In this document: positions 24,508 to 26,435 of the stretch, one piece after another
Numbering within the stretch: the stretch's first letter is position 1
Layout of the letters: each line of letters begins with the position of its first letter
Origin: Octopus vulgaris
Taxonomy: Eukaryota
Length of the DNA stretch: 64,000 nucleotides
Direction of reading: 5' to 3'
Assembly (NCBI GenBank): GCA_951406725.2
Contig: OX597821.1
Coordinates: 22,010,001-22,074,000, forward strand
Translations under genes and position numbers: made by a program
Notes under the pieces: model-generated
Databases searched by the model: none
Seen by the model: only the letters and a program-made list of their open reading frames with translations
Told to the model about the DNA's origin: nothing

Positions 24508-24845
24508 GGGTAAAGATACCCTTCGGTCATGAATGACCGTGGGATTGCACCTAGAAAGTTACCCTCCGAAGCACAAGTCCGGGCACGGTTGTTAATAGCA
24601 GACCGGCAGTCGTCCTTGCATACCAGCCTCTCCTCTCAAAGCCATTGATGTTATCCAAGGGAAAGGCAGAGGCCGATATATTTTGGCACCAGTGACATCG
24701 CAATTCATATCTAACAACTGAGTGAACTGAAGCAACATGAAATAAAGTGTCTTGCTCAAAAACATAACACACAGCCCAGTCCTGGAATCGAACTCACTAC
24801 CTCACAATCGTGATCCCAAAGCTCTAACCACTAAGCCATGCACTT
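24508..24845 (-). mobile_element. tRNA-derived SINE (head B + tail 3), full length
   Basis: Minus strand A box tggcttagtgg, B box gagttcgattcc. Same body as 36494-36815. Confidence 0.88.
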
Positions 24846-25244: not shown

Positions 25245-25570
25245 ACCTCGGGCCGATCAAAACCTTGTTAATGGATTTGGGGGCCGGAAACCGAAACATG
25301 CCCGTCGTATACGTGTGTATGTGTGTGTGTATGTGTGTGTGCGTGTGTGTGTCTTTGTGTCTATCTTTGTCCCTCACTACAGCTTGACAAACTGTGTTGC
25401 ATTATTTACATCCCAGTAACTTAACAGTTCGACAAAAGAAAATAAGTACCAAGCATAAAAAGAAAATAATTACTGGGGTCGATTCAATAGATCAAAAAAT
25501 CCTTCAAGACGGTGCCCCAGCATAGTTGCAGTCTAGTAACTTAAACAAGTAAAAAACAAAAGATAAAAGA
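25245..25570 (+). mobile_element. OK-like SINE, old 5'-truncated copy
   Basis: cctcgggccgatcaaaaccttg ... gacggtgccccagcatagttgcagtc. Confidence 0.75.
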
Positions 25571-25770
25571 TATGTGCATGTTGAATATTTGCAGAGGTTT
25601 ACTTTCTGGACAAGTGATTTGTTCTGAGAACGTGTGTTGAAACCAAAACGATTGCAACGTAGAAAACCCGTACTTGTCGTCGAAATACACACACAGACAG
25701 TTGGCTTCACTGAAACATTTATTGGCTACTACAGTTCTATCTCTAAAGAGATGAAGAATTATGTACCTTA

Positions 25771-25927
25771 TTTACATTATTTACATTTGACAGATATTTG
25801 TCCTCATCTTCTTTGTTGTTAACACAACGCTTCAGCATATATACTCTCCAGCCTTCATCAGGTGTCTTAGGGAAATTTCGAACCTGGGTTCCCATTCTTA
25901 AGGTATTTTTCAATGTTGTTGTTGTTG

Positions 25928-25987
<60 letters not shown>

Positions 25988-26187
25988 TCACTGCCTGGAA
26001 TCGAACTCGGAATCTTGGGATCAATAGCCCGCGCTCTTAACCACTATATCATATGCCCGTGGGCAACCATGGAGTGAATTTTAGGGCATAATTACCCACG
26101 GGAATATAGTGTAGTGGTTAAGAGCGCGGGCTACTAATCTCAAGATTCCGAGTTCGATTCCAGGCAATGACGTGAATAATAATAATA

Positions 26188-26239
<52 letters not shown>

Positions 26240-26259
26240 TAATGATGATAATAATAATG

Positions 26260-26313
<54 letters not shown>

Positions 26314-26403
26314 TCGAAAAATACCTTACGAATGAGAACCCAGGTTTGAAATTTCCCCAAAGACACCTGATGAGAAATATCCGTCAAATGTAAATAATGT
26401 AAA
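25771..26403. mobile_element. Palindromic element: two divergent tRNA-like heads, each with (AAT)n and a Penelope-type hammerhead tail
   Basis: Arms 25771-26066 and 26092-26403. A box 26107-26117, B box 26150-26161. Minus-strand gacac-CTGATGA-aggc...gct-GAAG-cgtt-gtgt at 25821-25866. Confidence 0.75.
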
Positions 26404-26435
26404 GAACGTAAAGAAAGTATTTATTGGCTACATAA

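Follow-up and report, generated by a model that had tools for sequence, protein, structure and literature searches.

A palindromic repeat of Octopus vulgaris is a dead insertion of a Penelope-type element with a tRNA-like head and a hammerhead in its terminal repeat

In the present study, a palindromic repeat was analysed in a 64,000-nucleotide stretch of the Octopus vulgaris genome (the window; contig OX597821.1 of assembly GCA_951406725.2, positions 22,010,001 to 22,074,000 of the forward strand). An earlier note on this DNA had described the repeat, at 25771-26403, as two divergent tRNA-like heads, each joined to a Penelope-type hammerhead tail, and had proposed a tRNA-headed short interspersed element (SINE) or retrozyme mobilised by Penelope machinery. 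We found that the palindrome is a single dead insertion of a Penelope/Poseidon-type element, made of two 5'-truncated copies of its pseudo-long terminal repeat (pLTR) placed head to head, one of them with a long tail. It is not a separate SINE, as the tRNA-like head belongs to an autonomous element that encodes a reverse transcriptase (RT) and a GIY-YIG endonuclease. Overall, the observations are best explained by a coding Penelope that carries a tRNA-derived RNA polymerase III (Pol III) promoter in its pLTR and produces a palindrome in one insertion, an explanation that we consider probable.

The genome searched amounts to 2.8 Gb in 227 contigs, and it holds at least 3,783 candidate copies of the tail, at least 1,178 of the head and at least 2,679 of the end of the open reading frame (ORF). 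When loci were seeded with the head, a tail on the same strand was present within 600 nt in 24 of 29 and an inverted partner in 20 of 29. Because these loci share tail and partner, head, tail and palindrome are family traits and not products of chance, and the linkage of head and tail that the earlier note had read in one place holds throughout the family. The head stood directly 3' of the ORF in 30 of 30 loci seeded with the ORF end (these take in the query's own locus and three near-identical copies), and the tail then followed in 28 of the 30. A search with the GIY-YIG region of a foreign protein placed the head 3' of the ORF in 26 of 30 loci; the other four are broken off or deleted before or within the head. 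Among these 30 of 96 matches only the head-bearing Penelope family was found, and no version of the ORF without the head was seen. At the other end of the element, the tail runs directly into the ORF in 24 of 29 ORF-start loci (counted by eye, with the query's own locus left out), as in a partial-tandem pLTR. The unit is therefore a pLTR (head, (AAT)n, hammerhead, tail), then one frame with RT and GIY-YIG, then the pLTR again. It can be followed in a full-length decayed copy, L091, of 2,632 nt, which has an inverted repeat and a 12-bp duplication (read by eye). These data uphold the suggestion that the tail is the pLTR of an autonomous Penelope. The RT of L091 was recognised by the RVT_1 profile (E=5.8e-8), and the RT region is 40% identical to the Anolis protein P0043; other related proteins showed 52-66% identity. 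For the C-terminal piece of L091, a Penelope-type protein of Anolis came up as a match (E=6e-22), and the piece also aligned with the GIY-YIG region of the control L155; the Pfam GIY-YIG profile gave no match to this piece. Every copy seen is broken by stops or frameshifts. Judged by domain order and the best named matches, on which the placement in a clade is based, the element is almost certainly an endonuclease-bearing (EN+) Penelope-like element (PLE), probably of the Penelope/Poseidon kind.

In the window, the insertion is composed of the following features. Here and below, statements from cited papers refer to the available parts of those sources.
25717-25729, no strand: left copy of the target-site duplication (13 bp); the identical 13-mer stands on both sides and occurs only twice in the window
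25730-26087, minus strand: left arm, a 5'-truncated pLTR copy running from the 3' untranslated region (UTR) through head, (AAT/AAC)n and hammerhead to a long tail (by alignment; tail positions 1-185)
25730-25770, minus strand: optional Penelope "tail" extension, left arm only, which continues into the ORF in full-length copies (for this type of tail see PMC8557442 and PMC11167929)
25821-25866, minus strand: minimal type I hammerhead, decayed, with stem I at 25862-25866 and 25821-25825 and the core at 25855-25861
25916-25981, minus strand: (AAT)n/(AAC)n microsatellite within the left pLTR, read from the sequence
25982-26064, minus strand: left tRNA-Arg-like head, with the +1 G at 26064, A box at 26041-26051 and B box at 25997-26008
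26065-26093, no strand: the "spacer", which is the Penelope 3' UTR from stop codon to head (left arm 26065-26087, right arm 26087-26093, with a 1-nt overlap at the joint); it matches the ORF-to-head stretch of ORF-bearing copies
26094-26176, plus strand: right tRNA-Arg-like head, with A box at 26107-26117 and B box at 26150-26161
26177-26311, plus strand: expanded (AAT)n microsatellite within the right pLTR, read from the sequence
26312-26403, plus strand: tail of the right pLTR, with the hammerhead body deleted after CTGATGA (26367-26373); it holds tail positions 1-61 and 110-152 and stops at the short-tail position
26404-26418, no strand: 15-nt filler from the short end to the duplication, read from the sequence
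26419-26431, no strand: right copy of the target-site duplication (13 bp), the identical 13-mer

The whole unit thus spans 25730-26418 and is enclosed by the 13-bp duplication. Its inverted arms are 87% identical over the head and microsatellite part (25907-26071 and 26087-26251) and 90% identical over the tail part (25867-25982 and 26245-26360). The two arms, both pairs of A and B boxes, the microsatellites and both CTGATGA words lie where the earlier note had placed them. Its inverted arms of about 300 bp are present, but the unit reaches beyond them and the left arm is about 40 nt longer than it had described. The 25-bp spacer that it had set apart is the element's own 3' UTR, shared between both arms. 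Counted from the G that lies 13 nt ahead of the A box (+1), the stop codon stands at -26, the left arm begins at -23 and the right arm at about -7. Since both arms start upstream of +1, the template of the window copy was presumably a read-through RNA. Both ribozymes are broken. The left one has GAAG for GAAA (25830-25833), as had been reported, and is more broken than the earlier note had said, since the 3' strand of stem II is also damaged; the right one was lost by the proposed deletion between two GATGA words, with about 55 nt gone and about 3 nt more. The arms are on opposite strands and point apart, so the palindrome does not have the tandem units of a non-LTR retrozyme; short direct tandems were present at L019 and L104. 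A very common interspersed repeat at 25250-25570 of the window lies close to the insertion on its left and has 30-45 matches among the fetched loci.

The palindromic architecture itself is an already published form of insertion, ordinary for the class. In PLEs it has been described as an inverted copy that is 5'-truncated, a tail of 30-40 bp being present at a single end (PMC8557442), and as inverted pLTRs with 9-10-bp duplications and palindromes at the junction (PMC3846280). We collected 80 head-to-head pairs among the fetched loci. One long and one short end were present in 63 of them, two long ends in 7 and two short ends in 1, while 9 had an end outside both classes; in 5 of the 7 pairs with two long ends, the sense arm is a direct repeat running into the ORF. 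Duplications of 9-14 bp surrounded 37 pairs, a 6-8-bp match 16, and none was found around 27. Private non-CpG changes common to both arms occurred at 0.0043 per site (33 in 7,664 sites) compared with 0.0016 under random pairing; the observed rate was reached in 0 of 2000 shuffles. In addition, the rarer A allele at position N7 of the hammerhead was present in both arms of 5 pairs and in one arm of 1 pair, of 57 pairs covering N7 (counted by eye). These findings indicate that a head-to-head pair is one insertion event. The arms of pairs differ by 7.9%, and the family is therefore old.

The hammerhead, broken in both window arms, has an intact core in the family consensus. The exact 40-nt core was found in 1,165 copies and its reversed control in 0, and the column tallies gave the canonical majority base at every core column, so that the consensus restores CTGATGA and GAAA, a point that the earlier note had asked to check. 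The tallies also gave an extra base after A9, a G10.1-C11.1 pair, a stem II of 5 bp, a stem I of 4-5 bp and a palindromic helix III position. All core bases were kept in 48 of 105 arms that had not been selected on the ribozyme. The sole non-CpG core column with a second allele above 10% was N7 (178 T, 27 A), which is the one free position of the core, and this suggests a small sign of selection in the masters. The family ribozyme is a minimal PLE-type type I hammerhead, predicted to work as a dimer. By the rules for minimal hammerheads (PMC4209133), the left window copy would be cut between 25826 and 25825. Among the 15 joints listed (38 more exist) in RNA runs of a related organism, no back-joint was seen at the predicted cut as a sign of circular RNA. 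When the window stretch and 7 loci were run against Rfam, neither a hammerhead nor a tRNA was called, and its miRNA matches arise from the palindrome and simple repeats. Single-arm folding gave z-scores from -1.84 to +0.45, with no structure signal, and the identification of the tRNA-like head and the hammerhead in the window is by alignment and motif evidence.

Across the hammerhead and tail, a frame stays open and joins the ORF without a shift (L062, oriented 1816-2325; L091, oriented 3685-4245), with an ATG upstream of the core, and the variable repeat in the tail is 9 nt long and preserves the frame. It is likely that the start codon lies in the pLTR ahead of the cut site, as in the Anolis element PAc. 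Splice-like words had hinted at a short intron in the tail, but this was rejected: no such intron was seen among the same 15 listed joints, the depth over the ORF was about 1-20 per strand, and the frame is open without an intron. We also observed a 934-bp inverted duplication with 99% identity at L092 (oriented 2238-3169 and 3849-4782), which covers part of the ORF; it is far younger than the family and may be a local rearrangement or an assembly effect. A head-only SINE was considered and set aside, as the head is followed by the microsatellite in every one of the 29 head-seeded loci; the 5 loci in which the tail is missing within 600 nt show an interruption, a truncation or a long microsatellite. 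Other repeats are nested in the (AAT)n tract of the element at L007, L020, L044 and L159, and the tract apparently serves as an insertion target. One of the repeats within the pLTR microsatellite resembles what we take, from its motif, to be a piece of a Dong/R4-type long interspersed element (LINE).

The head aligned end to end with the tRNA-Arg(TCG) of the genome, the best among 30 tRNA loci covering six amino acids, with a score of 58.5, while the best of 5000 shuffles reached 46. Its score against the head of another SINE in the window was similar, at 56.0, and for this reason the head is likely derived from a SINE head captured into the 3' UTR. ARAGORN found no tRNA in the window. As the head shows no tRNA fold, processing of the RNase P type was discounted. 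The other tRNA-headed SINE-like repeat, whose head resembles that of the Penelope, lies at 24560-24830 of the window (minus strand) and has 6-8 matches among the fetched loci.

The 5' ends of the copies form a wall at the head. In 88 arms that were not selected on head or ORF end, the start lay beyond +30 in 14, at +13 to +30 in 18, at +4 to +12 in 18 and at -3 to +3 in 17; a further 12 started past -100 and 9 at -4 to -99, of which 4 appear to be artefacts of fold-back or of the microsatellite. Among the 61 arms seeded with the tail and with the pattern, 38 reach +12, and of these 30 begin at -3 to +12, 2 at -99 to -4 and 6 past -100. Most short copies reaching the head therefore start there, as would be expected of Pol III products. 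The rate of stopping per nt in these 61 arms was 0.079 at -3 to +12, compared with 0.003 upstream and 0.007 downstream. Most short copies accordingly begin with the A/B-box head, whereas the two window arms do not. In each of four runs, from four organisms (63-117 contigs each), +1 was likewise one of the positions at which loose contig ends mainly gathered. In two ORF-bearing copies, L164 and L182, the 5' repeat begins at the head.

Furthermore, the element is nearly free of TTTT runs, at which Pol III would terminate. L091 has 25 TTT runs and no TTTT in its 2,632 nt, compared with a mean of 3.5 in dinucleotide shuffles (P=0.011), and codon shuffles over its 2,145 nt of coding pieces gave a mean of 3.2 (P=0.012). 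In 71 copy segments (46,383 nt), 9 TTTT runs were counted against 44 expected, and these were scattered, with at most 2 at one site. As a control, a second Penelope-type family of the same genome (A 39%, T 26-28%), which has no match to the head, held 8-17 TTTT runs in each of 20 copies, and 10-17 in copies of 2.3-2.5 kb. A Penelope from a metagenome had 4 in 2.2 kb; the metagenome scan gave a single relative, with neither head nor hammerhead pattern. The second family (L092 798-1922, minus strand, and L216-L235), come upon as a chance neighbour, is younger, with 96-98% identity among the best copies and at least 2,178 candidates; it has no tRNA head, and no hammerhead pattern was seen near the 3' end in 8 of 20 copies checked. 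A further RT-like frame with no Pfam match, at L029 2199-2780 (plus strand), may represent a third Penelope-type family.

On these grounds it is quite likely that the pLTR holds a working Pol III promoter. In the mechanism that we propose, Pol III would begin at +1, the G 13 nt ahead of the A box, and continue, in a unit with no TTTT, through the hammerhead, the ORF and the next repeat. The endonuclease of the element would cut both strands, and RT would start at two internal sites of the tail and give the long and the short ends, as in the anole element, for which RT starts at two internal sites and cleavage of both DNA strands are described (PMC11167929). Where RT initiates in the 5'-most repeat, it would reach the end of the template at +1 after about 300 nt, leaving short copies that look like SINEs. 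The head-to-head joint may then form through the small GCCC/GGGC palindrome at +1, on which the cDNA end folds back, or through annealing of that end to the second cDNA. In its full form, this describes an autonomous coding retrotransposon that has captured a tRNA-type promoter, is transcribed from it end to end by Pol III and has been cleared of TTTT over 2.6 kb, with an end repeat that also serves as a SINE through internal RT initiation. We offer this full form tentatively, as slightly more easily wrong than right.

Several points weigh against it. The TTTT test is in effect a test of one master sequence, as the copies are not independent, and some LINE pieces in the same loci are also poor in TTTT (0-1 in 0.7-1 kb). 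In the same way, the two arms of one palindrome are not independent data points for the 5' ends. Defined 5' ends of the pLTR, accompanied by small palindromes and a putative TATA/initiator (Inr) promoter, are known from other Penelopes too (PMC3846280), and because of this the wall alone cannot name the polymerase. In three of three raw RNA runs of a related organism there was no pile-up at the start, reads were equal on both strands, and 87-89% of them run on into unrelated flanks; this is passive read-through of old copies, compatible with a Pol III RNA being present or absent. None of the holders listed for the sequence is registered as RNA, which has no bearing on expression. A Pol III RNA of 2.6 kb, uncapped yet translated, would conflict with the limits on length put forward in PMC10886601, where the known Pol III retroelements are no longer than about 1.3 kb. 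Of the six direct 5' repeats of ORF-bearing copies that reach the start of the head, four run past it and two begin there. Since both window arms also start upstream of +1, long templates were often read-through RNA, which fits a terminator-free tandem but fits Pol II as well. The known lengths of Pol III retroelements, the four of six direct repeats that run past the start of the head, and the fact that the wall concerns short copies would suit an arrangement in which Pol III makes the short head-to-tail RNAs alone, as a built-in SINE copied in trans, while the coding element relies on a Pol II promoter or host read-through and lacks TTTT in its ORF by chance. We regard this arrangement as unlikely, though the most serious of the alternatives, as TTTT is missing across the whole unit, coding pieces included, unlike in both control Penelopes, and the ORF-bearing L164 and L182 do have a 5' repeat that starts at the head.

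The head could also be an inert passenger, left when a SINE head and its (AAT)n tail landed in the 3' UTR of the master, with the 5' ends piling up at a GCCC/GGGC fold-back hotspot or at a Pol II start. Its near-equal similarity to the other SINE head and to tRNA-Arg would agree with this, as would the palindromes known at pLTR 5' ends and the relative's RNA runs, which hold no transcript of the element's own. Many joints at the wall carry fold-back letters (A for the master's T at -2), and the palindrome hotspot does contribute to the wall, again to the detriment of the Pol III explanation. Yet the palindrome has already been copied by the time RT stops, the wall is also the stopping point of arms whose joint is to unrelated DNA (L050, L052, L059), and an inert head leaves the 13-nt spacing to the A box and the absence of TTTT unexplained; capture of a SINE head, the likely origin, does not make the head inert. 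We therefore judge the passenger view rather improbable. The view of the earlier note, an independent tRNA-headed SINE or retrozyme with an acquired Penelope tail, mobilised in trans by a head-less Penelope, agrees with the sample, in which the majority of copies are short and non-coding and begin at the head. It is largely refuted and very improbable, as the same head is in the autonomous element, no head-less ORF version was seen in the GIY-YIG-seeded sample and both window arms start in the 3' UTR; moreover, a SINE distinct from its partner would share the 3' end alone, whereas here the entire short unit including the head is the autonomous pLTR. That head and hammerhead came to be nested by chance and were then duplicated locally in inverted form is refuted by the family-wide linkage, the duplication around the whole unit and the 80 similar pairs, and with nothing found in its favour its probability is negligible. 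A coding Penelope with a tRNA-derived Pol III promoter thus remains our preferred explanation.

The octopus element resembles other EN+ PLEs, such as PAc of Anolis carolinensis (PMC11167929) and Pen2a_Av of Adineta vaga (PMC3846280; for the structure see PMC8557442), in having RT and then a GIY-YIG-type endonuclease in one frame, direct and inverted pLTRs, a 30-40-nt tail on one end, duplications of about 9-14 bp, and a hammerhead in the pLTR that the reading frame overlaps; the Anolis protein P0043 is presumably PAc. Unlike them, its pLTR holds a tRNA-derived A/B-box segment and (AAT)n upstream of the hammerhead, and the unit has no TTTT; promoters of EN+ PLEs are described in these sources as TATA/Inr-like or overlapping an intron, not as tRNA-type. 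The ribozyme agrees with the minimal PLE hammerheads of Cervera and de la Pena 2014 (PMC4209133) in its CUGANGA core, the extra base between 9 and 10.1, G10.1-C11.1, the palindromic 15.2-16.2 and the lack of a stable helix III; it differs in that both window copies are broken. A Pol III-type promoter followed by a hammerhead also occurs in the SINE-like repeats of Schistosoma (PMC6765202; the name Sm-alpha, used in the earlier note, is found in a reference title in PMC2837043). Those repeats are described as non-coding and tandem, whereas the octopus module is the end repeat of a coding element and stands head to head. The TRIMp3 elements Cassandra, Helenus and Ajax (Kojima 2024, PMC10886601) likewise have a small-RNA-derived Pol III promoter in the terminal repeat, for which a SINE insertion was proposed; they belong to the non-autonomous LTR elements, measure no more than about 1.3 kb and have a primer-binding site and polypurine tract, in contrast to this coding family of Penelope type, and their autonomous partners, it is argued there from the length limit of Pol III, must use Pol II. 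Non-LTR retrozymes (PMC7229834; bioRxiv 10.64898/2026.07.22.740005) are similarly short non-coding units derived from a pLTR, with a type I hammerhead and a proposed mobilisation by PLEs, but they are defined by tandem units, and the available main text of the preprint mentions neither "tRNA" nor "promoter". We found no report of a tRNA-type promoter in the pLTR of a coding Penelope in the literature; Repbase, Dfam, SINEBase and supplements (e.g. the repeat library of PMC13282606), which were outside this search, may hold the family. As far as these sources go, the new part is the tRNA-derived segment within the end repeat of a coding Penelope, its nearest precedents, the Schistosoma hammerhead SINEs and TRIMp3, being non-coding.

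According to the prevailing view, autonomous retrotransposons use Pol II (or read-through by Pol I), and tRNA-type promoters belong to non-coding parasites (PMC10886601). If our explanation is true, a Penelope that carries A and B boxes in its pLTR, begins its RNA 13 nt ahead of the A box and lacks a terminator would breach this division between Pol II and Pol III, and it would provide one route by which SINE-like and retrozyme-like repeats derive directly from a coding element. The open Penelope question of where the RNA starts, and how an uncapped, ribozyme-bearing RNA is used, would become testable. In practice, thousands of "SINE" copies in the octopus genome are Penelope ends.
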